A stretch of DNA of 32,000 nucleotides from positions 14,998 to 46,997 of the forward strand of contig JABUBF010000001.1 in the NCBI GenBank assembly GCA_013306035.1, given 5' to 3'. The notes under the pieces were generated by a model. It worked only from the letters and a program-made list of their open reading frames with translations, was not told where the DNA came from and did no database searches. The position numbers were made by a program, and so were the translations under genes. Shown piece after piece: positions 11,841 to 31,531 of this stretch. This DNA comes from Nitrososphaerota archaeon (lineage in GTDB: Archaea; Thermoproteota; Nitrososphaeria; Nitrososphaerales; UBA57). Numbering within the stretch: the first letter of the stretch is position 1; each line of letters starts with the position of its first letter.

Positions 11841-11925
11841 TATTTATAACCACAATTATCCAATGTTCTGCTAATTTATCTATTTTTAAAGAATTAAATA
11901 ATAATTGTGTCTTTTTTTATTTATT

Positions 11926-12537
11926 ATGTTGAGTGGAAATAATAGAATCGCCGCTATTGTTGGCGTGGTTATTTTAGTTGGAATTGGATTCTTCTTATTT
12001 AATCCATTTAATAGTAACTCAGATAGTACGAGTGCTAGTTCTGCTCCAATAGCAGTTATAGAAACTACTTATGGCATTATAGTTATTCAGCTATTTCCTG
12101 ATGTTGCTCCTGGACATGTTGATAATTTTGTACGATTAGCTAATGAAGGATATTATGACGGAACTACTTTTCATCGAGTTATCCCTGGATTTATGATACA
12201 AGGAGGCGATCCCAATTCTAAAGATGACGATCGAAGTAATGATGGTCAGGGAGGACATTCTGCAAATGGACCAAATACCTTTGTTAATGCTGAATTTAGC
12301 CAAGACTTGACACATAAACGAGGTATATTATCGATGGCCCGAGCACAGGACCCTAATTCCGCAGGTTCACAATTCTTTATTGTTGTTGCAGATTCTAATT
12401 TCTTAGATCGACAGTATTCTATATTTGGTGAAGTAATCGAAGGTATGGACGTTGCCGATAAAATTGTAAATGTTAAAAAAGATTCTGCGGATAATCCTCT
12501 GGAAAAAATTACCATGAAGGTTACTATTCGTTCTTAG
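11926..12537 (+). CDS. Cyclophilin-type peptidyl-prolyl cis-trans isomerase with N-terminal membrane anchor and Ser-rich linker (probably extracytoplasmic)
   Basis: Contains FHRVIPGFMIQGGDP, SMARAQDPNSAGSQFFI and YSIFGEV cyclophilin motifs. N-terminus MLSGNNRIAAIVGVVILVGIGFFLF followed by NSNSDSTSASS. I prefer ATG 11926 to the track's upstream TTG 11905. Confidence 0.88.
   Translation: MLSGNNRIAAIVGVVILVGIGFFLFNPFNSNSDSTSASSAPIAVIETTYGIIVIQLFPDVAPGHVDNFVRLANEGYYDGTTFHRVIPGFMIQGGDPNSKDDDRSNDGQGGHSANGPNTFVNAEFSQDLTHKRGILSMARAQDPNSAGSQFFIVVADSNFLDRQYSIFGEVIEGMDVADKIVNVKKDSADNPLEKITMKVTIRS
11982..12003 (+). repeat. 22-nt segment (aattggattcttcttatttaat) inside the anchor-coding part of cyclophilin 1; identical copy at 12560-12581
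   Basis: Direct comparison of the two stretches shows 22/22 identity. Confidence 0.9.
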
Positions 12538-12605: not shown

Positions 12606-13100
12606 ATGAATAATAGTTCTGGACCAATTGCAGTTATTAAAACTAAATTTGGTGATATAAAAATTCAATTGTTTCCTGACGTAGCTCCAGGACATGTTGA
12701 AAATTTCGTTAAATTAGCTCAGGATGGATTTTATGATGGAACTACTTTCCATCGTGTAATACCTGATTTTATGATTCAAGGAGGAGACTCTAATTCTAAA
12801 AATGAAGATCGAAATACTCATGGTATTGGCGACCCTGGATATTCTATAAAGGCTGAATTTAGCAAAGACTTGACACACAAACGTGGCATATTATCAATGG
12901 CTAGAGGAACAGATCCTAATTCCGCAGGTTCTCAATTCTTTATTGTAGTAGCTGATTCAAAATTTTTGGACAAACAATATTCTATCTTTGGCGAAGTAAT
13001 TGAAGGAATGGAAGTCGCAGATAAAATTGTAGATGTTAAAAGAGATGCTAAGGAAAATCCTCTAGAAAAAATTACCATGAAGGTTACTATTCGTTCTTAA
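12606..13100 (+). CDS. Cyclophilin-type peptidyl-prolyl cis-trans isomerase, anchor-less (cytoplasmic) paralog
   Basis: 164 aa, collinear with residues 46-210 of the upstream gene, with the same motifs (FHRVIPDFMIQGGD, SMARGTDPNSAGSQFFI). Confidence 0.9.
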   Translation: MNNSSGPIAVIKTKFGDIKIQLFPDVAPGHVENFVKLAQDGFYDGTTFHRVIPDFMIQGGDSNSKNEDRNTHGIGDPGYSIKAEFSKDLTHKRGILSMARGTDPNSAGSQFFIVVADSKFLDKQYSIFGEVIEGMEVADKIVDVKRDAKENPLEKITMKVTIRS

Positions 13101-17383: not shown

Positions 17384-17480
17384 TTTTATACCTGCATTTA
17401 ATAAGTTATCTTTCGTTAATATGATTTTATCGTGTGAATAATGAAAAAGTTAATGTATGTGTAATTTTTATAATGTATTG

Positions 17481-17598
17481 CTGCCGGCCATAGCGACGGG
17501 GTTCCACCTGGTCCCATTCCGAACCCAGAAGTTAAGACCGTCGACGCCAGTGTGTTAGTGAGGTCCTAACGGTCTCGTGAAGCAATGGTGCCGGCACT
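17481..17598 (+). rRNA. rrf: 5S ribosomal RNA, not linked to 16S/23S in this window
   Basis: UGCCGGC (17482-88) pairs with GCCGGCA (17590-96) as helix I. The internal CCACCUGGUCCCAUUCCGAACCCAGAAGUUAAG is the universal 5S loop B/helix III-loop C signature. Local G+C is far above background. A T-rich tract (tttatttta) follows. Ends are +/-2 nt. Confidence 0.93.
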
Positions 17599-17661
17599 TT
17601 ATTTTATCTAATAATGCTTATTTTCTAGTGATAACATAACTGTCTTGATTGAGTTGATTTT

Positions 17662-18780
17662 ATGGATTTAGTATTTATAATCGGAGCAGGAAACGCGCAA
17701 ATAACAAGTAATCCAATTATTAATCTTGCAATTGTTTATCTTCCGTTAGCTCTTTTAATCTTATACGGACAAAGATTACAAGTTTGGCTTATTACTAATG
17801 ACTTATCCAAAACTGTTGGACGTCTAAAGGAAATGAAAGATAGGTCAAGACAAGAAACTATTGATCATATTACTGAAGGAATAGATAACAAAGAAGAAAC
17901 AATAAAACGCCTCGATTCATTTCTTGAATATTTTACCATTATGCCTGTTGATTTAGATCCCGCCGGTGTGATAAATAAACTTGATCATATTATGACTAGT
18001 CGAGACATACGAATGAAAAGTGAAATTAAACAACTGTTTCCTGATTTAGATAAACTTAAGGCGAACTCTGTCGAGAATGTTATTGAAATTGCCACGTCAT
18101 TTAACTTTGTGTATAAAATTGTTCGTCATTTCTATTTAGTTGGTAAAAAGACAAATAATTTTATTATTCTAGCACAATTACAAATGATTATACCATTTCT
18201 TATGTTACAAGCTGATGCGTTAAGCCAAGCAATGACTACATTCAAAAAGAATCAACCTGTCGGCGATGCGATTGGACCTATGATTGTTGGTAAATTAATG
18301 TTAGAGCATGAAAAACATGACATCGCTGTAGATACCATTTATGCCGAATCTGATATATCAGGCCGTAAAGCAATTCTTGTTACTGCTAAAGGACCTGTTG
18401 GAACTGTAGGTCAGCCTGGTAATGCTGTTCAAGAGTTAATTCAGAAAGAAAATCCATCTCTTTTAATTATGATTGACGCTGCCCTAAGACTAGAAGGTGA
18501 AAAAACAGGCGAAGTTGCCGAAGGGGTAGGAGCTGCAATAGGAGGAATTGGAGTAGATAAATTCAAAATTGAAGAGGCTGCTACAAATAATAATATCCCT
18601 GTTTATGCAATAATTGTAAAACAGACTATTGTTGAAGCGATCTCTGTTATGACCAAAGAGATTGCAGAAAGTGTTGATTCTGTTCACGATATTATTCATA
18701 GAATTATTGACGAAAGAACCAAGCCTAATGATAAAGTAATAATTGTAGGCGTTGGTAATACCATAGGCGTGATTCAGTAG
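17662..18780 (+). CDS. Conserved archaeal membrane-anchored protein of unknown function (recalls the DUF1512 family)
   Basis: 372 aa, with an N-terminal hydrophobic segment followed by a soluble domain with a Gly-rich C-terminal part (GPVGTVGQPGNAV...GVGAAIGGIGVDK). Family assignment is from memory, not a search. Confidence 0.6.
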   Translation: MDLVFIIGAGNAQITSNPIINLAIVYLPLALLILYGQRLQVWLITNDLSKTVGRLKEMKDRSRQETIDHITEGIDNKEETIKRLDSFLEYFTIMPVDLDPAGVINKLDHIMTSRDIRMKSEIKQLFPDLDKLKANSVENVIEIATSFNFVYKIVRHFYLVGKKTNNFIILAQLQMIIPFLMLQADALSQAMTTFKKNQPVGDAIGPMIVGKLMLEHEKHDIAVDTIYAESDISGRKAILVTAKGPVGTVGQPGNAVQELIQKENPSLLIMIDAALRLEGEKTGEVAEGVGAAIGGIGVDKFKIEEAATNNNIPVYAIIVKQTIVEAISVMTKEIAESVDSVHDIIHRIIDERTKPNDKVIIVGVGNTIGVIQ

Positions 18781-20446: not shown

Positions 20447-20530
20447 AATAAGTACATTCGATATATATTATAACTTGAATATTAATTCAAGAAGTAGGGG
20501 GGGGACGTAGCCTAGCTCGGTTATGGCGTC

Positions 20531-20550
20531 AGCACTTGTTGTGCCGCTAA
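20531..20550 (+). other. tRNA-Trp intron 1 (20 nt), non-canonical position 28/29 in the 5' strand of the anticodon stem
   Basis: Bulge-helix-bulge motif. The 4-bp helix is GGCG (20525-28) with CGCU (20545-48). The 3-nt bulges are UC|A (20529-31) and AA|C (20549-51). The intron hairpin is GCAC-UUGUU-GUGC. Cutting between bulge nt 2 and 3 gives exactly the stem needed. Confidence 0.8.
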
Positions 20551-20559
20551 CGGCTCCAG

Positions 20560-20622
20560 AAGCTAATAGTATAATTTAGGTAGAACTGACTTATTGGATG
20601 ATGTACCTTTGGAGCAGCAGTG
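20560..20622 (+). other. tRNA-Trp intron 2 (63 nt), canonical position 37/38
   Basis: The boundaries are dictated by the cloverleaf (loop CUCCAG|A). The BHB is relaxed: CUCC (20554-57) pairs with GCAG (20617-20) with one C-C mismatch, and the bulges are AG|A and UG|A. A competing perfect helix GCUCCA/UGGAGC (20553-58 with 20610-15) also exists. Confidence 0.65.
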
Positions 20623-20705
20623 ACCGGGAGATCGTGGGTTCAAATCCTGCCGTCCCCATTTCCTCATCTTTCTTAATGGCATACGTATTTAGTAATTAGA
20701 TTATG

Positions 20706-21563
20706 TTAAGCAGGAACTAAATATTTAATTTCCTTCAAATTATCTTCTAATGTATTTTCATTCGGCATTACTATGGCTGGTAGAAATCTCTTTGAGGTAC
20801 TTTCTGTTAATGCCTGACCTCCGACTACTATAGGTTTGTCATATCCTTTGGATATGTTCTTAACAAGATTTATACCACTTTGTACATTTGCAGGCAGTGT
20901 TATAGATACTAATACCATATCTGGTTCGATATTTGCTACGTATTTTATTACATCCTTGCTTGGAGTCGACGGAGATATATTATATACATTATAACCCTTG
21001 TTAGTTAATATCGATTCAAGCATATTACATACAATATTATGACGTTCACCAGAAGGATTACATATCAATAATTTAGATTTTTTCTTCTTCTTCACGTCTT
21101 TCTTATTCATCTCACTAATTATTCCAAGTAATCTATTACTTACAACATGTTCTGTTCCTATCATCAATTCATTTCGCCTCCAACGATCACCTACGTCATA
21201 TAGAATGTGTTTCACTATTTTATCATAAAATTCTAGTATTGAAAAATCATCACTATATTCATCATATACAATAGATAAGTTAATAGGTCCAGGACCTGCT
21301 AATTTTTTGAATAAATCTTTACGTACCTTTTCAACATATTTATTATAATTTTTACCTGATGCGTTCTGGTCCTTGGCAAAGAATTTAATTATATTCTTGT
21401 TATCTATATAATCTTCTGGAATATCATCTAATGTGATTTTCTCAGTTCTTCCAAGATATTTTATCGTTTCCTGTTTTGATACCTTTTTCTTCTTGTCCCA
21501 GATACTTCTTACTAGGTACGAATAATCCATTCCTTTTACTCGTTTATTTCTTATGTAGACCAT
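20706..21563 (-). CDS. B12-binding-domain protein with CarH/LitR-like Wx9EH helical-bundle motif and a basic, non-MerR N-terminal domain (putative cobalamin/light-responsive regulator)
   Basis: 285 aa with W128-x9-E138-H139 (DRWRRNELMIGTEHV). The Rossmann-type B12 domain has GERH175NIV (a DxHxxG variant), VLVSITL and PIVVGGQAL. N-terminus is MVYIRNKRVKGMDYSYLVRSIWDKKKKVSKQETIKYLGR. Confidence 0.7.
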   Translation of the reverse strand: MVYIRNKRVKGMDYSYLVRSIWDKKKKVSKQETIKYLGRTEKITLDDIPEDYIDNKNIIKFFAKDQNASGKNYNKYVEKVRKDLFKKLAGPGPINLSIVYDEYSDDFSILEFYDKIVKHILYDVGDRWRRNELMIGTEHVVSNRLLGIISEMNKKDVKKKKKSKLLICNPSGERHNIVCNMLESILTNKGYNVYNISPSTPSKDVIKYVANIEPDMVLVSITLPANVQSGINLVKNISKGYDKPIVVGGQALTESTSKRFLPAIVMPNENTLEDNLKEIKYLVPA

Positions 21564-21606
21564 TGAGACACTAAATCACATTCTAATATATATAGTATTT
21601 AGCACT

Positions 21607-21618
21607 AGAATTAATTCT
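21607..21618. promoter_or_regulatory. Perfect 12-bp palindrome AGAATTAATTCT flanked by GCACT direct repeats (21602-06, 21621-25), in the divergent promoter region between the B12-binding protein gene and the SDR gene; candidate operator
   Basis: Read directly from the sequence. A second 5-1-5 palindrome, GAAGA-A-TCTTC, lies at 21628-21638. AT-rich palindromes can arise by chance in this genome. Confidence 0.3.
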
Positions 21619-21676
21619 TGGCACTATGAAGAATCTTCTATATGTATTATAAATGATAATAAAAAATATCTGACGT

Positions 21677-22570
21677 ATGAAGAAAATACTAGTTAGCGGT
21701 TCTACTGGTTTTATTGGCAAGAATTTTATAAATTTCATCACACACGAATCATTTTCCGTAACAAAATTAGTAAGAAAAAATAATCATGTTGATGATTCTA
21801 GTATATTTTGGAATCCATATGAGGACGTATTAAACATAGATAAATTCGAAGATTTTGATGTAATAATTCATCTGTCAGGACGTTCTCCTATAACAAGAAT
21901 TACTCAAAATGTAAAACAGGCCTTGTATTCAAGTCGAGTCGAAACAACAAAAAATTTAGTTAATATGATAACTAAATTAAAAAAACCTCCTGACGTTTTT
22001 CTCTGTGCGTCAGCTACAGGTTACTATGGCGATCAGGGAAATACTGATTTATACGAGTCTTCTAATGCAGGAAATGGATTCTGGTCGGATATGTGCAGTG
22101 ATTGGGAAACTGCCACTATACCTGTAAAAGAACTTGGTATAAGAACAGTAAATCTTCGTATTGGCAATGTTATTGATAAGGTAATGAATTTAATATTATT
22201 GAAACTTCCAATATTCTCAGATTTTGGTCATGGCAATCAGTATTATCCATTTATCTCAATGCATGAATTAAATAATATTCTTCTTCATGTAATACAGAAC
22301 GACAATATTAACGGTCCAGTTAATTTAGTATCTCCTCAACCCATAACCAATCACATGTTTAATCAAGCATTAAGTAAGGTTTATCACCGCCCTGCAATAT
22401 TATCTATTCCCGAAATTCTTCCAAGATTGTTTCTAGGACGAGAAATTGCAAATCTTCTATATGGTAGTAGTAAAGTTTTCCCTAAAAAATTACTTGATTC
22501 AGGTTATAAATTTGCTGAAAATACTCCTGAAGAATCGATAATTCATTACAAAAATTACCGAGTCAAATAG
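21677..22570 (+). CDS. Atypical SDR / NAD-dependent epimerase-family protein (YfcH/TIGR01777-like, with DUF1731-type C-terminus)
   Basis: 297 aa with N-terminal ILVSGSTGFIGKNF Rossmann motif. Length and C-terminal LLDSGYKF resemble the SDR39U1/YfcH group (assignment from memory). Confidence 0.7.
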   Translation: MKKILVSGSTGFIGKNFINFITHESFSVTKLVRKNNHVDDSSIFWNPYEDVLNIDKFEDFDVIIHLSGRSPITRITQNVKQALYSSRVETTKNLVNMITKLKKPPDVFLCASATGYYGDQGNTDLYESSNAGNGFWSDMCSDWETATIPVKELGIRTVNLRIGNVIDKVMNLILLKLPIFSDFGHGNQYYPFISMHELNNILLHVIQNDNINGPVNLVSPQPITNHMFNQALSKVYHRPAILSIPEILPRLFLGREIANLLYGSSKVFPKKLLDSGYKFAENTPEESIIHYKNYRVK

Positions 22571-22586
22571 GTGAATAAGTGTATAA

Positions 22587-23052
22587 TTGATTTATCTGGA
22601 TTATGTTATTATTGGACTCATATCTGGTATTTTCCCCACAATAGTTATGTCAATCTTTGAATTTCCATTCTATAAAATTTGGGGCATTAAGAGTGTATAT
22701 GAACTTCATGAAAGTGAGATGATTGTGTGTAAATTGATGAAAAGAAAATTCCAGAATAATATCTCCCGTATGGGAATCTTGACACATCTGCTCAACGGAT
22801 CTTTGCTCTCCGTACCTTTTGTTATTTTCATTAATCTAACAAAATACCAATCCTAGTATAATTATTGGAATACTTTATTCTGTTGTTATTTGGCTTGTTA
22901 CATTATTACCTGTTCATAAACTGATTACTGGTGAATCTATTAGTGAAAATCCTTACGGATACCAACCTGCTTTGGTCAGTATAATTGGACACTTTATCTA
23001 TGGCATTATGTTGTACTATAGCTATATGACTCTTGGAGGTCTTTTGAATTGA
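22587..23052 (+). pseudogene. Small polytopic membrane protein, paralog of the downstream gene, interrupted by a +1 frameshift near 22840-22857
   Basis: Frame 0 gives 89 aa (22587-22856) matching the N-terminal half of the 154-aa neighbour. The C-terminal half (..SIIIGILYSVVIWLVTLLPVHKLITGESISENPYGYQPALVSIIGHFIYGIMLYYSYMTLGGLLN*) continues in the +1 frame (open 22840-23052) and aligns with the neighbour's ..HAIYGAALGYF.. region. Confidence 0.6.
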
Positions 23053-23513
23053 ACTTTGATTTTCTTCTTAATGGATTAATTGCTGGTTTTATAGCCACCG
23101 GCGCAATGTCTATCCTTCAAATTCCAATGTACAAAAAATGGGGAATGACTTCTGTTCTTGAATGGCACGAAAACCAGGTTATTACATCTAAAATTATTAA
23201 AAATAATCCTGAAGAATTATTAATCCCGAGCTTCTTTTTTCATTTTCTCCACGGCGGGCTTGGAGGCATAGCTTTTGCCATTACTGTAAGTATAATTAAT
23301 TTTCAGGTGTCATATTTGATTTCTGGAACCGTTTTAGGATTTCTTTTTGCTTTAGTTGTTCTAATTATTCATGAGCCAATTACAAAAGTCAAACCTCTTC
23401 AGCATCCATTAGGAAATCTTCCAGTTATTGCAAGTTTCGTAAATCACGCAATTTATGGCGCTGCATTAGGATATTTTCTTTTTCATCTTTCTCACTTTGA
23501 TATTATTTTATAA
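23049..23513 (+). CDS. Small polytopic membrane protein of unknown function (intact paralog)
   Basis: 154 aa, about 4 TM segments, with conserved KKWG..S..EWHE near the N-terminus and NHAIYGAALGY near the C-terminus. The TTG start overlaps the TGA of the upstream +1-frame ORF (TTGA). Confidence 0.65.
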   Translation: MNFDFLLNGLIAGFIATGAMSILQIPMYKKWGMTSVLEWHENQVITSKIIKNNPEELLIPSFFFHFLHGGLGGIAFAITVSIINFQVSYLISGTVLGFLFALVVLIIHEPITKVKPLQHPLGNLPVIASFVNHAIYGAALGYFLFHLSHFDIIL

Positions 23514-24851
23514 TTGTGTTGTGTAAATCTCTTTATCATAAAATGTAAAGTGTGCTACTACTAGTAATACTGCAACTATACATAGACCTATTATGTTCAA
23601 TATTGACGTGTTTACATCAGGAAAACTTCCTAAAATTGCCATTCCTTTACTAACTTGATATGGTCCAATTTTTGGTAAATATGAAATCAAATACATGGTG
23701 TCTGTTAACCAGAATAACGCTGCAGTCCAACCTACTATTCCTGCCAACAACGATCCTAGTCTAGCTCTCTTTCTTACGAAATAATAACCTATTCCAATTA
23801 CTGTTAACCAGACCAAAGTTACTATGCCTGTTAATGGTTGCATTGTCATCAATCTTTGATCTATGAGATAATGTAAGACCCCTGTAATTCCTAATATTAT
23901 CAATAAATAAGAAAGGTAATTTTCTTTTTTTGTGAATTCTTCTTTATCTTCCTCATGCGAAGTTAATTTTAATGATTCATCTACTCCTTTTAGTGGAATT
24001 GGTATCAAGTCCATTATTGATTTCTCAGTCATTACTGATTCATTTTTTAATCCTTCCACTAATGGCCGCGCTAATGATGCTTTTATCGGCGTAACCAAAT
24101 CTACCCAATATGAGGTGAATCTCAGGCTTAGAAATGGTATAATTATCATTATTATAGATTTGTTATTTATTTTTCCATACTTTTTCATCATTTCTCTATA
24201 TTCTAGTATGTCAGGTCCTCCAATATCGAATGTTCTCGCTTCAGTTTCTTTAACATTCAAACTTTCATAGAGATATCGTACTACATCGTCTATGTATATT
24301 GGCTGTAATTTTGTCAGAACCCATTTTGGACAGACCATTATTGGTAATCTTTCTACTAAATACCTCATCATTTCAAAGCCTCCGCCTCCTTTACCTAGAA
24401 TGACTGAAGCACGAAACACTGTGACCTTAGCTTTCGACGTTTTTAAAATCTCGCCTACTTCTTGTCTACTTGACATATGTTTAGACATCTCATTATCTGG
24501 GATACTCACTAATCCTCCTACATATATTATTCTCTTTACATTGCATTCTGTCGATGCATCGGCAAAGTTCTTTGCAATCCTTTTATCCAGATCTACAAAT
24601 CTTTCCCAATCCTTTGATTCACCCTCCATTGAATGAATAAGGTAATATACAACATCAATTCCTTCTAGAGCCTTCAGTACTTGTTTATAGTCTTGTGCAT
24701 CAGCTTTTATTTTCTCTAGATTATTATGTTCTAAATTATCTAAACTCTCTAAATTCCTCGACATTACTCGAACGGATATTTTTTTTCCTAATAGAAATCG
24801 AACAAGTTTCTTACCAATAAAACCACTTGCTCCCGTGATCAGTATTTTCAT
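23508..24851 (-). CDS. NAD(P)-binding atypical SDR (NmrA/YbjT-like) fused to a C-terminal four-TM domain
   Basis: 447 aa with N-terminal ILITGASGFIGKKLV Rossmann motif, about 300 aa of soluble domain, then four hydrophobic helices (YLSYLLIILGITGVLHYLI ... ILNIIGLCIVAVLLVVAHFTF). Confidence 0.7.
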   Translation of the reverse strand: MKILITGASGFIGKKLVRFLLGKKISVRVMSRNLESLDNLEHNNLEKIKADAQDYKQVLKALEGIDVVYYLIHSMEGESKDWERFVDLDKRIAKNFADASTECNVKRIIYVGGLVSIPDNEMSKHMSSRQEVGEILKTSKAKVTVFRASVILGKGGGGFEMMRYLVERLPIMVCPKWVLTKLQPIYIDDVVRYLYESLNVKETEARTFDIGGPDILEYREMMKKYGKINNKSIIMIIIPFLSLRFTSYWVDLVTPIKASLARPLVEGLKNESVMTEKSIMDLIPIPLKGVDESLKLTSHEEDKEEFTKKENYLSYLLIILGITGVLHYLIDQRLMTMQPLTGIVTLVWLTVIGIGYYFVRKRARLGSLLAGIVGWTAALFWLTDTMYLISYLPKIGPYQVSKGMAILGSFPDVNTSILNIIGLCIVAVLLVVAHFTFYDKEIYTTQL

Positions 24852-24879: not shown

Positions 24880-25209
24880 CTAAATACTTTCCATGTACAT
24901 AGATACAGGATTATCATTTGCCATTTTATTCCATAATTCAGTATCATGTATCTGAATTAATTGTATGTCGTTCATTTCTGTTTTTCCTGTTGTAGTTACT
25001 ATGTTTTCATTTTCGGTTGTAAAATTTATTTTAATGTTCTTTCCAACATCATGAAATTCTTCAGGAATAAGAATTTCTTTTTCTCCATATTTGATATATA
25101 TTGGAATTTCTAAATCATCATTAAAAATTTTTCCTGAAATATTAGATTCTGTTAAACTTACATCAACTTGAAACTTTATTGGGAATTCAATTTTTATATT
25201 CATAAACAT
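24880..25209 (-). CDS. Hypothetical protein (no recognisable motif)
   Basis: 109-aa ORF in stop-codon-rich AT-rich DNA, not overlapped by another gene. A TATA-like tttaaataaa lies upstream on the minus strand. Confidence 0.45.
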   Translation of the reverse strand: MFMNIKIEFPIKFQVDVSLTESNISGKIFNDDLEIPIYIKYGEKEILIPEEFHDVGKNIKINFTTENENIVTTTGKTEMNDIQLIQIHDTELWNKMANDNPVSMYMESI

Positions 25210-26485: not shown

Positions 26486-27292
26486 TTGCAAAGCACTATT
26501 AATTCAAAATTACACGATTTAGAATCATGGTTTAAAAATTATGATTCCGTTTTGATTGCATTTTCAGGTGGAGTAGATAGTACTTTGTTAGCAAAAGCAG
26601 CATTTATTAGCATAGGTAAAAAAGCAATTGCAGTTACAGCTGATTCACCTAGTATCCCAAGAAGTGAATTAACTAACGCAAAATCTCTTGCTAAAATGAT
26701 TGGAATCAAACATCTTATAGTAAATACTAATGAAATGGAAAATCCACAATACACTCAAAATCCATCTAATCGATGTTATTATTGCAAGTCTGAATTATTT
26801 TCGACTTTGTCCAATCTTTTAAAGGAAAAAGATATTGAGATTATAGTAGATGGCACAAATATAGACGACTTATCTGATTTTCGTCCTGGTCTACAAGCAG
26901 CAAATGAAAATCAAATTCATCATCCCTTTGTAGATCTTAAATTTACTAAACTTGATATTCGAAATATTTCCAAACATCTACAATTATCAACTGCAGATCG
27001 ACCATCTGCACCGTGTCTTTCTTCACGTGTCTCTTATGGCCAGCCTATAACTCTTAAAACATTAACAAAAATCGAAAAAGCTGAAGCATTCATTAAAGAA
27101 CTTACAGGAATTGAAGTTTTACGTGTGCGAGATCATAATAATATGGCAAGAATTGAAGTGGGAAAACACGAACGCTCCTTGTTGTTTGACGAAATAATTA
27201 TGGATAGAATCGATAAAGAATTAAAACACATCGGTTTCAAGTACATAACCTTGGAACTATCAGGTTATAAATCAGGTAATCTAAATAAATAA
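26486..27292 (+). CDS. larE: LarE-type ATP-dependent sulfur transferase (PP-loop ATP pyrophosphatase, NPN cofactor biosynthesis)
   Basis: 268 aa with PP-loop AFSGGVDST and the APC177LSSR active-site Cys motif, plus C97yyC100. TTG start, with no in-frame ATG upstream. Followed by larB. Confidence 0.8.
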   Translation: MQSTINSKLHDLESWFKNYDSVLIAFSGGVDSTLLAKAAFISIGKKAIAVTADSPSIPRSELTNAKSLAKMIGIKHLIVNTNEMENPQYTQNPSNRCYYCKSELFSTLSNLLKEKDIEIIVDGTNIDDLSDFRPGLQAANENQIHHPFVDLKFTKLDIRNISKHLQLSTADRPSAPCLSSRVSYGQPITLKTLTKIEKAEAFIKELTGIEVLRVRDHNNMARIEVGKHERSLLFDEIIMDRIDKELKHIGFKYITLELSGYKSGNLNK

Positions 27293-27302
27293 TCTTACAA
27301 AA

Positions 27303-28067
27303 ATGATCATTGATGAAATATTGAAAAAAGTTTCAACTGGTGAACTTACTCCTAGTGCTGCAAAAAAACAAATTCAATTAAATTCTATACACGAAGTTCA
27401 GAATATCGCAAAGATTGATACTGGACGTTTATTTCGAAAAGGTGTTCCTGAGATCATTCTTGCAGAAGGAAAGTCTCCAGATCAAGTTGTTAAAATTGCT
27501 AAAAACATGTTCTCAACTTCAGGTCATGTGATAATTAGCCGTACTGATAAATCTCATATTACTGCAATCTCTAAATCTTTTACTAAAAAATACATTTGTA
27601 AAAATGTTCTTGCAAATACTGTCGTAATATCTAATAAAAAGAAGCAAAAAGTTCATGGACATGTTGCAATTATTACTGCAGGTACTGCAGATATTCCTGT
27701 TGCTGAAGAAGCTAAAGTAATAGTTGATGAAGTAGGATGTAAAAGTACTACATATTATGACGTTGGAATTGCGGGAATACATAGATTATTTTCCTCACTT
27801 TCATCTGTTATTCAAGACGATGTAGATGTAATAGTGGCCGTTGCAGGTCGTGAAGGAGCTATGCCTTCTATTATTGCTGGTATGGTTGACATACCTGTTA
27901 TTGGAGTACCAACATCAATCGGTTATGGCTATGGTGACAAAGGAACTGCTGCATTGATGAGTATGCTACAATCCTGTGCACTTGGTATTGCAACTGTAAA
28001 TATTGATTCCGGTATTGCTGCAGGAGTTCTTGCATCAATTATTGTTCAAAAAAAATCAATTAAATAA
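27303..28067 (+). CDS. larB: LarB, nicotinic acid adenine dinucleotide carboxylase/hydrolase (PurE-like domain)
   Basis: 254 aa. The C-terminal half (VAIITAGTADIPVAEEA...VAGREGAMPSIIAG...PVIGVPTSIGYG) is an AIR-carboxylase-like fold with the N-terminal extension typical of LarB. Confidence 0.82.
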   Translation: MIIDEILKKVSTGELTPSAAKKQIQLNSIHEVQNIAKIDTGRLFRKGVPEIILAEGKSPDQVVKIAKNMFSTSGHVIISRTDKSHITAISKSFTKKYICKNVLANTVVISNKKKQKVHGHVAIITAGTADIPVAEEAKVIVDEVGCKSTTYYDVGIAGIHRLFSSLSSVIQDDVDVIVAVAGREGAMPSIIAGMVDIPVIGVPTSIGYGYGDKGTAALMSMLQSCALGIATVNIDSGIAAGVLASIIVQKKSIK

Positions 28068-29297
28068 TTCTTTTTGTATCTGTTTTGAAATGTCATCTTT
28101 TAACACTATTAAATTCATTTTATGTTTCTCAGATAATTTGATAATCTGATCAAATTCTGGCTTAAATTGAATAATTTCTCCAGATTCTGATTTGACTACT
28201 TTTACATCAATTTCTTCATCATCATTATTTATCCTTACATTTATCTTCACATTCTCCCTCATCTGTATGAATCTTGATATTGGATATACTCTCACACCCA
28301 GTGTTCCTGTTTCTCGCATAACAATATTGGAGAAAAACTCTGTTTTGCTTAAGTTTGTAATTACTTTTAATACATTACTTGGACGACCCTTCTTTCCTAT
28401 TGTCGGTATTAACGATACATCTAATGCACCATAATCAATTATCTTCTGCATCGCATAACCTAATTCTTCTCCCGTTCTATCATCTATGTTTGTTTCAATT
28501 ATTGCAACTTCGTCAGTAACTAATTTGGATTTCTGTCCTAGTGTAATTCTTAGAATGTTTGGTATTTCTTTAAAATCAGACGAACCAGCTCCTATCCCTA
28601 TTATGTCTGGTTTTATTCCTGGGAAAAATTCTTGACTGTCTTCTACCAATGCCGCTAGCATCGACATGCCTGTCGGAGTTGCAGTTTCATACATTCCTGG
28701 CCCTCCTTTAATTATTATGTTATTTCTTCTAGCAATCTCTAATATCGCCGGTGCCGGATTCTGCATTTTTCCATGTGAGAATGTTATATCTCCCCCTCCG
28801 ATTGAAACTGGTGTAGTTATAATCTGTTTTAATTTAAATAATCCTAAATTATCTAACGCAGTTCCTGTTCCAATAATATCAACAAATGTGTCTATCGAAC
28901 CAGCTTCATGTAAATGCATCTCTTCTTTTGTCACTCCGTGTAATCTCTTTTCTGCAGAAATTAAATTCTCAAACGACCTCTTTATGAATGACTTGGCATC
29001 TTTAGATATGGAAATATTTTTGACGCAATTCTCCAAGTTATTATTTAATTCATTTACATTGTGTGTCGTATTATCTTCTTGAATTACAATATCTGCTTTT
29101 TTCGCACGAAACCCATTTTTTATTACATCAATAAAACTTATTTCTAGACGATTACAATTCTTGAAATAATCTTTAATACTTTCTATGTTATCGATTACTA
29201 ATTCTTCATCTGCTCCTAAATCTATTGTTGAACTTAATAGCATGTCTCCCGATATACCTGCGATACTTGGATCAATTACTAAAATATCATTTACCAT
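28056..29297 (-). CDS. larC: LarC, nickel insertion (cyclometallase) protein, single-polypeptide form (DUF111/TIGR00299)
   Basis: 413 aa with N-terminal IDPSIAGISGDMLL and HLHEAGSIDTFVDIIG motifs characteristic of LarC. Convergent with larB (12-nt tail overlap). Confidence 0.82.
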   Translation of the reverse strand: MVNDILVIDPSIAGISGDMLLSSTIDLGADEELVIDNIESIKDYFKNCNRLEISFIDVIKNGFRAKKADIVIQEDNTTHNVNELNNNLENCVKNISISKDAKSFIKRSFENLISAEKRLHGVTKEEMHLHEAGSIDTFVDIIGTGTALDNLGLFKLKQIITTPVSIGGGDITFSHGKMQNPAPAILEIARRNNIIIKGGPGMYETATPTGMSMLAALVEDSQEFFPGIKPDIIGIGAGSSDFKEIPNILRITLGQKSKLVTDEVAIIETNIDDRTGEELGYAMQKIIDYGALDVSLIPTIGKKGRPSNVLKVITNLSKTEFFSNIVMRETGTLGVRVYPISRFIQMRENVKINVRINNDDEEIDVKVVKSESGEIIQFKPEFDQIIKLSEKHKMNLIVLKDDISKQIQKELFN

Positions 29298-29764: not shown

Positions 29765-31531
29765 TTATTTTACTGTAACTGATTTTGCCAAGTTTCTTGG
29801 ATAATCTGGATTATTCTTTCTTCTTATTGCCGTATAGTATGCTAAAAGCTGTAATGGAATAAGCTCAATCAACGGATACAAAATATTATCTACTTTGGGA
29901 ATCTTTATCCAATAATCATACACTTCATTATTTTCAGATGATATTCCTATTATCTTTGCACCTCTTGCTTTCATTTCTATTGCATTGTTCATTGTATCCT
30001 CATACGATTCATCTTTCGGATTAATAATTATTGCAGGCGTACCTTCCTCAACAAGAGCTAACGTTCCATGTTTAATTTCACCTGCTGCCATTCCTTCAGC
30101 ATGAATATATGCGAGCTCTTTTAGCTTTAATGCACCTTCTAATGCAATTGGATGATGTATTGATCTACCTAAGAAATATACATCATTTGATTCATTCAGT
30201 AATTCTATTATCTCATGTAATGATTTTTCGTTTGATATAATCTCCTTTATTTGCTTCGATAATTCTTCTATCTTTTCATTACCATCCTTCACCTTTCCTA
30301 ATTCAAATATTATCTTGTATACTATTGCTAATTGAGATGTAAAACTTTTAGTTGCAGCAACTCCAATTTCTGGCCCACAATTTAGATTCAGACTAATGTC
30401 ACTTACTCTTGACAATGAGGAACCTATTGTATTGTATATTGATAAAATAGTAACTCCTTTGTCTTTCAAATTACGAATTACTTCAAGTAAATCTGCAGTT
30501 TCTCCACTCTGAGATATAGGTATTAATATTGAATTTTCATTCATTAATTCTCTATATTCTTCTGATTCACTAGATAAAAACGCCTGTACCTGACTTTTTA
30601 CAAATTTTGTAAGCATTTTCTTAAATATTAACGCTATATGAAAACTCGAACCCGATCCTGTGATAAAAATATTCTTTCCACTCAATAATTCTTTGACAAA
30701 TTTTTCAAATTCTTCCTTATCTTGATTTAATGCAGTTTTTACCGTAGAGCTTTGTTCATGTATCTCCTTAATAGTATGGTGTGAAAATTCCTCTTTTGAA
30801 ATATCTGCTGCTTCCCAAGCTACATGTGTTTTATCTCGTGTTATTTTATCTCCATTAAAATTTAGTATTTCAATTGAATTTTGTGTAACTTTTACTATTT
30901 CTTTGTCTTCTAAAAATATTACATTATCTGTATAATCTATGAAAGAAACAATATCGCTTGAAATAAAATTCTCATTTTCCCCAATTCCAACAATTAACGG
31001 TGCATATTTTCTTACTCCATAGATTTCATTTGTCCTATCACTAAAAATTACGACTAGTGCAAAACTACCGTTTAATTTCTTACTAATATTCTGTAATGTT
31101 TTTATTGGATCTTTTAATTTATTGTATTCTTCTTCAATTAAATGTGCTATTACTTCTGAATCCGTCTGACTCTGAAAATTATGATTATCTGATAACTCTT
31201 TAAATAATTTCCTGTAATTTTCTATAATCCCATTATGAACTAGTATTACTTCTTTATTACATGATAAATGTGGGTGAGCGTTTTCTTTTGTTACTCCTCC
31301 ATGTGTAGCCCATCTTGTATGGGCAACCCCAACTTTACCTTCTGCTTGCCCTAATTGAATTTTTTCATTTATTGAATCTATTCTTCCAATATCCTTCTTT
31401 ATTATTATCTTATCTTCATGAATAGTTGAAATTCCTGCTGAATCATAACCTCTGTATTCCATTCTTTTTAATGATTTTAATAAAATTGGAGCTGCATCTT
31501 TATGTCCAATATATCCAGTTATTCCACACAT
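29765..31531 (-). CDS. glmS: Glutamine--fructose-6-phosphate aminotransferase (isomerising)
   Basis: 588 aa with N-terminal MCGI (Ntn catalytic Cys after Met removal), two SIS domains, and the C-terminal ..RNLAKSVTVK typical of GlmS (..KSVTVE). Confidence 0.92.
   Translation of the reverse strand: MCGITGYIGHKDAAPILLKSLKRMEYRGYDSAGISTIHEDKIIIKKDIGRIDSINEKIQLGQAEGKVGVAHTRWATHGGVTKENAHPHLSCNKEVILVHNGIIENYRKLFKELSDNHNFQSQTDSEVIAHLIEEEYNKLKDPIKTLQNISKKLNGSFALVVIFSDRTNEIYGVRKYAPLIVGIGENENFISSDIVSFIDYTDNVIFLEDKEIVKVTQNSIEILNFNGDKITRDKTHVAWEAADISKEEFSHHTIKEIHEQSSTVKTALNQDKEEFEKFVKELLSGKNIFITGSGSSFHIALIFKKMLTKFVKSQVQAFLSSESEEYRELMNENSILIPISQSGETADLLEVIRNLKDKGVTILSIYNTIGSSLSRVSDISLNLNCGPEIGVAATKSFTSQLAIVYKIIFELGKVKDGNEKIEELSKQIKEIISNEKSLHEIIELLNESNDVYFLGRSIHHPIALEGALKLKELAYIHAEGMAAGEIKHGTLALVEEGTPAIIINPKDESYEDTMNNAIEMKARGAKIIGISSENNEVYDYWIKIPKVDNILYPLIELIPLQLLAYYTAIRRKNNPDYPRNLAKSVTVK

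Follow-up and report, generated by a model that had tools for sequence, protein, structure and literature searches.

Does an ammonia-oxidising archaeon possess a cobalamin-based, light-responsive regulator? This question is raised by a gene located at positions 20706..21563 (minus strand) of a 32,000-nucleotide stretch of contig JABUBF010000001.1 from a Nitrososphaerota archaeon (assembly GCA_013306035.1), the whole of which is referred to here as the window. According to the list of open reading frames (ORFs) and the sequence itself, the gene is complete, starting with ATG and encoding 285 amino acids followed by a stop codon. Its product, hereafter the regulator, is composed of a β-sheet head, a helical bundle and a Rossmann cobalamin-binding domain, in this order. 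A first-pass annotation, made from the DNA letters alone, had proposed a CarH/LitR-like adenosylcobalamin (AdoCbl) sensor carrying an unusual N-terminal domain. As follows from the data below, the regulator is best described as a new combination of a CarH-type photosensory cobalamin domain with an uncharacterised, transposase-type head, found so far only in ammonia-oxidising archaea (AOA) and possessing its own predicted operator. With moderate confidence, we consider it to be an AdoCbl-dependent, CarH-like, light-responsive transcription factor acting through a new DNA-binding domain.

The characteristic residues of the cobalamin module were located by a regular-expression check of the translation. 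W128-x9-E138-H139 and G172-E-R-H175 lie exactly where the first-pass annotation had placed them (codons 21182-21180 for W128, 21152-21147 for E138-H139 and 21041-21039 for H175), and the two further stretches that it had read, VLVSITL (S220, T222) and VVGGQA (G248, G249), are likewise present. In an alignment of 61 orthologues, with identity down to 36-40%, residues W128, E138, H139, G172, E173, H175, S220, T222, G248 and G249 are invariant. Furthermore, GxxW-x9-EH followed by GExH was found in 83 of the 84 full-length family members from genome loci, the residue following Hxx being A, G, V or S in the family. Pfam detected the B12-binding domain (PF02310) at residues 166-254 with E=2.7e-10, above the cut-off. 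Since this score, the invariance among 61 divergent orthologues and the 83/84 occurrence concur, the motifs are beyond chance. They define two regions of the sensor: a helical bundle (aa 70-155; 21099..21356, minus strand) bearing G125-x-x-W128 and E138-H139, with Wx9EH as the cap for the 5'-deoxyadenosyl group, and a Rossmann B12-binding domain (aa 160-285; 20709..21086, minus strand) with the lower-ligand H175 in G-E-R-H-N-I-V, S220-x-T222-L and G248-G249.

To which class of cobalamin domains does this module belong? The full-length AlphaFold2 model, generated with the 61-sequence alignment, has a mean predicted local distance difference test (pLDDT) of 87.9 and a predicted template-modelling score (pTM) of 0.77. 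Three strands (2-9, 12-23 and 28-39) are followed by helices 56-64, 70-89, 96-103, 109-129 and 135-155 and then by a β/α Rossmann domain. When this predicted model was compared with solved structures, including those of CarH cobalamin domains, the top 17 Foldseek matches in the PDB were all photoreceptor cobalamin domains (probability 1.00, target-normalised template-modelling (TM) score 0.75-0.83, 200-224 aligned columns). They were led by CtMerR (8JBS/8JBT), a photocobilin (8J2X/8J2W) and many entries of the cobalamin domain of Thermus CarH (TtCarH); the alignments with 8jbs, 8c36, 5c8a and 9s0g show the four-helix bundle packing on the Rossmann fold as in the solved CarH domains. AerR came next, and the corrinoid carriers MttC and 4JGI reached a TM of only ~0.5. 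A search of PDB sequences with the family profile gave a consistent picture, with photocobilins 8j2x/8j2w (E=1.7e-21), CtMerR 8jbs (5e-18) and AbDPcob 8j2y (1e-15) at the top, and MetH (5.6e-15) and TtCarH (5e-11) below them. The W-x9-EH columns align in the photocobilins and CtMerR, whereas MetH aligns without W or EH. Among the NCBIfam models, the best was the CarH equivalog NF052513 (52.3 bits), which aligned with residues 114-267 only, that is, with the cobalamin part. As the best sequence and fold matches are all photoreceptor domains, the earlier assignment of the module to the CarH type, rather than to the enzyme type, proved well founded, and we regard this part of the reading as very probably correct.

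The regulator could also be viewed as a corrinoid methyl-carrier protein resembling MtbC, MtaC or MttC. Several of its orthologues are labelled 'methanogenic corrinoid protein MtbC1' by the Joint Genome Institute, the NCBIfam models MtgC, MtaC and MtbC match weakly (E=1e-5 to 1e-9), and MttC and 4jgi figure among the fold matches. However, these NCBIfam matches amount to 24-37 bits, against cut-offs of 200-450, and the TM of ~0.5 to MttC and 4jgi is to be compared with 0.75-0.83 for CarH-type domains. Moreover, corrinoid-dependent methyltransferase partners, which the first-pass annotation had named as speaking for such a carrier, are encoded in none of the 85 loci whose neighbourhoods were analysed, and an invariant transposase/nuclease-type head and a promoter repeat play no part in methyl transfer. 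A methyl-carrier function is therefore very improbable. A light-response signature composed of GxxW, EH, GxxH and GxxxP was defined, as SignatureFinder, in the paper that solved 8JBS (PMC11796333), and three of its four elements occur in the regulator, namely G125xxW128, E138-H139 and G172xxH175.

The region preceding the bundle had been taken for a low-complexity linker of about 80 residues, and this view has to be abandoned. Indeed, residues 40-108 are confidently predicted as helical (AlphaFold2 helices 56-64, 70-89 and 96-103), with blockwise pLDDT values of 81-93 and only the block 61-70 being low (61). In the 61-sequence alignment, P49 and F61 never vary, and D47, I48, L88 and Y100 hardly do. 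The segment begins with a conserved connector (aa 41-68; 21360..21443, minus strand) containing a D47-I48-P49 motif, F61 and short helices. In the model, the bundle capping the Rossmann domain draws its first helices from residues 40-108.

The head (aa 1-40; 21444..21563, minus strand) is predicted to form a three-stranded antiparallel β-sheet with strands 2-9, 12-23 and 28-39. Its N-terminal 38 residues are the most conserved part of the regulator in the 61-sequence alignment, with 14 invariant positions: Y3, R5, K7, G11, Y14, Y16, V18, S20, W22, Q31, K35, Y36, L37 and G38. The model of the head alone shows the same sheet with a pLDDT of 91. Pfam gave no MerR or helix-turn-helix (HTH) match at E≤10 for the regulator N-terminus, so that the non-MerR character of this region, already suspected in the first-pass annotation, is upheld by both profile search and model. 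Pfam searches with 22 head sequences returned single chance matches only and no family. A likeness to the AP2, Tn916-Int or lambda-Int arm-binding β-sheet domains was considered, but was supported by no tool result and is not claimed.

To trace the distribution of the head beyond the family, a profile of its residues 1-66 was run against a set of 1.84 billion representative proteins, which yielded 535 matches at E≤0.001. One of them, P0268 (E=1.2e-7 with the head profile), contains DDE_Tnp_1 and is classified by NCBIfam among the IS1634 transposases (215 bits, cut-off 100); hhalign aligned the head profile with it over 40 residues at 97.7% probability and 43% identity. The likeness to IS1634 transposase N-termini, which the first-pass annotation had suggested with hesitation, is thus real. 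The head is also found N-terminal to HNH endonuclease domains (P0223, P0227) and to an AbiEii nucleotidyltransferase (P0242), and in front of cysteine-rich tails (P0211, P0217). Since its partners include DNA-acting enzymes and since R5, K7, K35, Y14, Y16, W22 and Y36 are invariant, we infer that the head binds DNA and adopts a fold that has yet to be characterised.

It might be argued instead that the head is a protein- or RNA-interaction module, that the promoter repeat described below belongs to another factor, and that the protein works as an AerR-like anti-repressor or a partner-switching photosensor. AerR is indeed among the fold matches, no structure resembling the head is proven to bind DNA, stand-alone head-only proteins exist, and a TFB paralogue is encoded in some of the loci. 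On the other hand, fusions to a DDE transposase and an HNH nuclease imply a need for a DNA-targeting module, no alternative DNA-binding regulator recurs in the loci, and the promoter of the regulator itself carries the repeat pair across the phylum. The direct-repeat geometry, furthermore, suits head-to-tail oligomers of cobalamin domains (PMC8156234). Such a head without a DNA-binding role appears improbable to us.

Several observations concern the head in other proteins. Combined with an unnamed C-terminal domain of ~100 residues, ending in ...AGI.VP.EVFVE.F, it occurs in a family of 160-185-aa proteins (P0209, P0218, P0235, P0238, P0255, P0257, P0259, P0264, P0266 and P0267), two members of which, P0209 and P0238, had no match in Pfam or NCBIfam. 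Head-only proteins of 73-85 aa (P0363, P0368, P0340, P0295 and others) contain the head and the DIP..Y connector without the cobalamin domain, and the AOA contigs that encode them are long, reaching 228 kb. Such proteins may act as B12-independent competitors or partners for the operator, some of them being possibly truncated gene calls. Finally, P0221, a high-GC fragment of 126 aa from a 611-bp contig, comprises the head, the connector and the bundle up to GRRW, which hints at a head-bundle fusion beyond low-GC AOA; a search with P0221 found no full-length relative.

What DNA could such a head recognize? The regulator ATG (21563, minus strand) and the ATG of a divergent epimerase/DUF1731 gene (21677, plus strand) are separated by an intergenic region of 113 bp. 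This region contains a predicted operator at 21599..21627 (plus strand), made of the direct repeats TTAGCACTAG (21599-21608) and TTGGCACTAT (21618-21627) with a 9-nt gap. The repeated decamer was first seen by eye in aligned upstream regions, and a consensus scan followed. The consensus pair TTAGCACTAG-N9-TTRSCACTAK (consensus duplex TTAGCACTAG-N9-TTACCACTAG) has a 19-bp period and adjoins the TATA box of the regulator promoter. In the window, the pair is the sole strong one (0+2 mismatches), compared with 0.12 pairs expected per window. A second pair, at 31035-31063, falls within the coding region of glmS and, having 1+3 mismatches, was treated as chance; a lone half-site CTAGTGATAA (17625-17634), 27 nt before a DUF1512 gene (17662-18780), has no partner repeat, is probably fortuitous as well and was not counted.

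The distribution of the pair was then considered in 804 kb of DNA, consisting mainly of the surroundings of the regulator gene. Pairs of the form TTAGCACTAG-N(8-10)-TTAGCACTAG with at most 4 mismatches occur 135 times, and only 7 of them fall in coding sequence, though 66% of the scanned sequence codes. The spacer is 9 nt in 100 of the 135 pairs, and an ATG is located exactly 31 nt past repeat 2 in 27 cases. A pair with at most 5 mismatches is present in 37 of the 79 regulator upstream regions, versus 0.3 in shuffled sequences, and many of the remaining regions have related variants discernible by eye or are situated directly behind an operator-bearing gene of protein cluster c5. Repeat 2 is followed directly by TTTATATA or TTTAAATA, giving the geometry repeat-N9-repeat-TATA-~23 nt-ATG. 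Such a geometry points to leaderless transcripts and would place the repeats over the position of the B recognition element (BRE). For the regulator promoter, the putative TATA element is TATATATAT (21586..21594, minus strand). The operator is 4 nt away from it and the ATG ~27 nt downstream of its centre, a spacing that suggests a leaderless regulator mRNA. A scan of the DNA for sigma-70 promoters did not rise above shuffled sequences, and this model is irrelevant for an archaeon.

Metagenome contigs were additionally scanned for exact occurrences of the strict consensus, which gave 54 stretches. They are mostly of low GC content (~0.26-0.40); TATA follows repeat 2 without a gap, and the ATG is found at +29 to +32. 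Their pairs precede genes for c5, for DUF6789-like proteins, for a 66-aa membrane protein and for a small zinc-ribbon protein, all families known from AOA loci. In terms of clusters, they belong mainly to c5, c2, c52 and c557, with the addition of a few unrelated tandem repeats (L090, L104, L106 and L136). This strict scan revealed no further photolyase promoters.

The position of the repeats bears on the sign of regulation. Located at about -33 to -61 from the start codon, they are upstream of TATA and not over the start site, a position used by many archaeal activators; the same sensor and operator could thus serve to recruit TBP/TFB from just upstream of TATA, either in the dark or after photoconversion. 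Against activation, repeat 2 adjoins TATA and covers the BRE position, which would favour occlusion of TFB, and at locus L065 only 7 nt separate a perfect repeat from the ATG of a DUF1722 gene, a repressor-like position. Besides, the CarH proteins of Thermus, Bacillus and Myxococcus act as dark repressors (PMC11417400, PMC8156234). While a regulator working as an activator is conceivable, we find it doubtful; as to the sign itself, repression is slightly preferred, because repeat 2 covers the BRE position and the L065 repeat is so close to the start codon.

Which genes could be controlled in this way? In addition to the regulator gene, a pair or a perfect half-site stands before c5 genes, DUF6789-like genes and a nucleotide cyclase. 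Repeats also precede a small ORF heading an SDR operon, or the SDR gene itself where this is divergent, and the amine oxidase promoter has a perfect repeat at a fixed position in five of six loci. Repeats are likewise located before DUF1722, the stop codon of which overlaps the photolyase start in L056, and in the intergenic region common to DUF1722 and a pyrimidine-dimer glycosylase (Pyr_excise). DUF1722/RudS and photolyase are members of LitR-controlled light operons in bacteria (PMC11417400).

Two of the proteins behind such repeats deserve a short description. Proteins of cluster c5 are secreted, of ~295 aa, and carry the best operators (for instance L048:4880-5767 and L072:3769-4671, and in metagenomes L085, L092, L099 and L111). 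A signal peptide is present, and a motif like IPxWIKNNAxWWAxGxISDxxFVxGIQYL occurs twice; Pfam assigned these proteins to no family. Their ATG is mostly 29-32 nt past repeat 2, and c5 is often directly upstream of the regulator. In Nitrosopelagicus-like loci, a 199-aa protein is encoded directly downstream of the regulator (L031:10002-10601; cluster c23, also in L037, L067, L073 and L082). It has a repeat pair 15 nt before its ATG and a weak match to the DICT sensory domain (E=2.6e-4, below the cut-off), DICT being a listed partner of light-responsive cobalamin domains (PMC11796333).

To characterize the gene context, ORFs of the 85 loci were clustered and representatives annotated with Pfam. 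The commonest neighbour, in 41 of the 85 loci, is an NmrA/SDR-like protein of 447-491 aa with a hydrophobic C-terminus, which spans Nitrososphaeraceae, Nitrosopumilaceae and the window lineage and has promoter repeats in L041, L047, L065, L070, L074 and L079. Neighbours with a light or UV connection comprise DNA photolyase (5 loci), DUF1722 (9 loci) and pyrimidine-dimer DNA glycosylase (5 loci), and UvdE occurs in L003. Other recurrent neighbours are DUF6789-like proteins, c5, a flavin amine oxidase (6 loci), a class III nucleotide cyclase, a Pyr_redox_2 enzyme and a TFB paralogue.

These neighbourhoods are relevant to another possibility, namely that DNA binding answers to the supply or form of B12 and not to light. 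The domain certainly resembles B12 binders, AOA are cobalamin producers, most operator-bearing genes are of unknown function, and the close relatives of the window are marine metagenome-assembled genomes; moreover, the annotated window ORFs include no photolyase. However, no cob/cbi, B12-transport or B12-dependent enzyme genes were found among the neighbours and operator-bearing genes of the 85 loci, whereas photolyase, DUF1722, Pyr_excise and UvdE do occur there. In addition, the Wx9EH cap, which is specific to an adenosyl group as upper ligand, is described as the mark of photoreceptor cobalamin domains (PMC11796333, PMC8156234). A mere sensor of cobalamin availability is therefore unlikely. 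Light is favoured over B12 sensing by the conserved predicted operator, which is found at the regulator gene itself and, in orthologous loci, ahead of genes associated with DNA photolyase, DUF1722, pyrimidine-dimer glycosylase and amine oxidase.

Taken together, these elements can be arranged, on the analogy of CarH, into a proposed mechanism, of which AdoCbl binding, the response to light, binding of the head to the repeats, the oligomeric state and the sign of regulation are what we infer. AdoCbl would be held between the Wx9EH bundle and the Rossmann domain, with H175 as its lower ligand. In the dark, the AdoCbl-loaded protein would assemble into head-to-tail oligomers with the heads facing the same direction, and these heads would occupy the repeat pair TTAGCACTAG-N9-TTRSCACTAK. 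CarH, whose oligomers are built head to tail, binds repeats of this direct type (PMC8156234). The repeats being directly upstream of TATA, over the presumed BRE position of apparently leaderless genes, their occupancy would control the access of TBP and TFB. Near-UV to green light would cleave the Co-C bond, so that the oligomer would dissolve and the promoter would be freed. Control is presumed to extend to the regulator gene itself and to a limited number of mostly adjacent genes, including DUF1722 (with the photolyase after it in one locus), flavin amine oxidase, the NmrA/SDR-like gene and genes for small membrane or secreted proteins.

Several observations weigh against this reading and have to be set beside it. 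Regarding the sensor, of the two Pfam families that the first-pass annotation had proposed to check, B12-binding was found, but B12-binding_2 at residues 108-144 is sub-threshold in the window protein (14.5 bits versus 23, E=0.041), being recorded for more distant orthologues. The regulator also fails to reach the NCBIfam CarH cut-off of 400 bits. The fourth SignatureFinder element, GxxxP, is replaced by S197-P-S-T-P201, as nearly all orthologues have S/T/A-x-S-x-P; a strict signature-based search would probably miss this family. None of the 83 motif-bearing orthologues has the His beside Trp that gives TtCarH its bis-His photoproduct; CtMerR lacks it too. Since the residue after Trp is not His, a photoproduct of the TtCarH type is not expected. 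As for the head, it has no structural precedent for DNA binding: Foldseek with the head-only model gave no significant match in the PDB (best E=0.34) or BFVD (best E=0.06), and the best match of the head profile among PDB sequences was the double-stranded RNA-binding domain of RNA helicase A (E=0.2).

Other such points concern the operator and its targets. In the window, and indeed in its whole lineage, the pair runs in the inverted direction with respect to the regulator gene. With respect to the divergent gene its orientation is the usual one, yet 20 nt separate it from a TATA-like TTATAAAT (21647-21654). This arrangement is kept in L005-L010, even where the divergent gene is DUF6789-like. 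The repeat was assigned to the regulator by co-localisation, in DNA sampled mainly around the regulator gene, so that the motif may belong to another factor. Furthermore, what follows the strongest operators is not photolyase but proteins without a known function (c5, c2, c52), and neither a photolyase nor another UV-repair gene is present among the annotated window ORFs, which represent about half of those of at least 90 aa.

How does the regulator compare with known systems? With CarH/LitR proteins (TtCarH, PDB 5C8D/5C8E; Bacillus megaterium; Myxococcus xanthus), it shares the helical bundle and Rossmann domain (target TM 0.7-0.83) and a similar motif spacing, W128/E138/H139/H175 corresponding to W131/E141/H142/H177 of TtCarH. 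The N-terminal place of the DNA-binding module (predicted here) and an association with photolyase-type genes are further common traits, and the predicted operator, with direct repeats overlapping the promoter, would be another. The DNA-binding part of CarH is, however, a MerR winged helix instead of a three-stranded β-sheet, and its operator consists of three or four tandem 11-bp repeats, whereas pairs of 10-bp repeats with a 19-bp period are observed here. The regulator also differs by the lack of His after Trp, by its archaeal host with TBP/TFB promoters and by an NCBIfam CarH score far under the cut-off. It would work like CarH/LitR but is not a strict member of this group: it agrees in Wx9EH, the His motif and the fold, but has no MerR domain, deviates in one signature element and stays below the curated score.

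The best matches in both sequence and fold are CtMerR of Chloracidobacterium thermophilum (8JBS/8JBT) and the photocobilins SasPcob/AbDPcob (8J2W/8J2X/8J2Y), all of them experimentally light-responsive (PMC11796333). The motif context is nearly identical, GDRWRRNELMIGTEH in the regulator and GERWRRGELNIWEEH in CtMerR, with Arg rather than His after Trp. These proteins differ from the regulator by their MerR HTH, by biliverdin-binding or GGDEF partners, and by GxxxP in place of SxSxP. AerR/PpaA, the purple-bacterial anti-repressors (7TE2), match the cobalamin domain in fold (E=1.1e-9, target TM 0.72); to our knowledge, AerR has no DNA-binding domain and works through CrtJ, whereas the regulator has an N-terminal head predicted to target nucleic acids. 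Finally, the N-terminal ~40 residues of IS1634 transposase are homologous to the head, though the regulator lacks the DDE domain (no DDE_Tnp_1 match). We know of no established function for this transposase region. Unlike a mobile element, the regulator resides in a conserved neighbourhood across the phylum, as illustrated by the recurrent SDR-like neighbour.

How widespread is the family? A word-indexed search of ~5.8 billion proteins identified 207 homologues, the named sources of which are all Nitrososphaerota (Nitrosopumilaceae, Nitrososphaeraceae and Nitrosotenuis). A scan of one genome per GTDB species gave 263 encoding loci. The best 80 of these 263 are all from AOA and include the genera Nitrosopumilus, Nitrosopelagicus, Nitrosotenuis, Nitrososphaera, Nitrosocosmicus and Nitrosopolaris. 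In these searches, the family was found only in Nitrososphaerota, and by homologue and genome searches the window itself belongs to an ammonia-oxidiser lineage, the kind of host that the first-pass annotation had envisaged. This lineage is a tight group (L005-L009, 84-94% identity), with ~40% identity to Nitrosopumilus and Nitrososphaera proteins. Several Nitrososphaeraceae genomes, including soil ones, contain two regulator paralogues on different contigs (L019/L021, L020/L049, L047/L059, L041/L062 and L038/L051), all of which keep Wx9EH and recall the CarA/CarH duplication in myxobacteria.

The earlier supposition that such a protein had not been characterised agrees with the literature: in the full texts covered, outside of which remain many subscription-journal papers and thus possibly an earlier description, no B12 photoreceptor, regulator family or repeat motif was described for these archaea. 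Nor was a light sensor or light-responsive regulator of AOA found within the same full-text scope.

Turning to the other features of the window, the divergent gene (21677..22570, plus strand) encodes a NAD-dependent epimerase/DUF1731 family protein (Pfam Epimerase, DUF1731). As the operator faces it at a distance of 50 nt, it may be considered a candidate target. It is followed by two ORFs for DUF6789-like small membrane proteins (22587-22856 and 23049-23513, plus strand), both clustered by BLAST to c6. The Pfam match to DUF6789 concerns 23049-23513 only and stays under the gathering score (E=1.7e-5, 25.4 bits versus 27.1). Cluster c6 recurs in L006-L009 and elsewhere, and the related c2 has perfect operators. 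The NmrA/SDR-like neighbour of the window (23508..24851, minus strand; 447 aa) is matched by Pfam over residues 1-149 only and is preceded by an ORF of 109 aa at 24880-25209. Upstream of this SDR operon (24880-25209 / 23508-24851), no convincing operator was detected in the window, and L007 and L009 have a single half-site there.

Directly downstream of the regulator gene, on the other strand, lies a tRNA-Ser(TGA) gene with a 74-nt anticodon-loop intron (20501-20658, plus strand), which was found by ARAGORN with introns allowed but missed by default ARAGORN and Rfam. A solitary 5S rRNA gene is located at 17480-17599 (plus strand; Rfam 74.6 bits), ahead of the lone half-site mentioned above. 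The segment 26486-29297 contains three ORFs that recall the genes for making the nickel-pincer cofactor (lar). The first (26486-27292, plus strand) is PP-loop ATPase-like, its NAD_synthase and QueC matches being close to the cut-off or at it and without a significant stretch; the second (27303-28067, plus strand) is AIR-carboxylase-like, and the third (28056-29297, minus strand) is a Ni_insertion (LarC-type) ORF. In the lar pathway, they would correspond to LarE, LarB and LarC, respectively. Two adjoining cyclophilin-type peptidyl-prolyl isomerase genes are also present (11905-12537 and 12606-13100), the product of the first having an N-terminal extension of ~50 aa.

What would this regulator mean for its hosts? 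B12 photoreceptor regulators are spread across bacterial taxa (PMC8156234). We see about even chances that the regulator represents the first cobalamin photoreceptor transcription factor described in Archaea, with an uncharacterised β-sheet DNA-binding fold recruited from IS1634 transposases or shared with them. It would then recognise a defined direct-repeat operator over the BRE of leaderless promoters and govern a light/UV regulon spanning the AOA, with photolyase-linked genes and various membrane and secreted proteins of unknown function among its members.

AOA are inhibited by light and are major cobalamin producers. If the proposed reading is true, an archaeal member of the B12 photoreceptor class would offer a handle on light perception in these light-sensitive nitrifiers. 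The head would be a new small DNA-binding fold, which would explain target finding by IS1634 transposases and by some HNH and AbiEii proteins, and the system as a whole would constitute a compact green-light switch on a TBP/TFB promoter, of possible optogenetic use. Furthermore, the operator and its regulon would give a light context to the DUF6789-like proteins, the ~295-aa c5 proteins and the 66-aa membrane protein.

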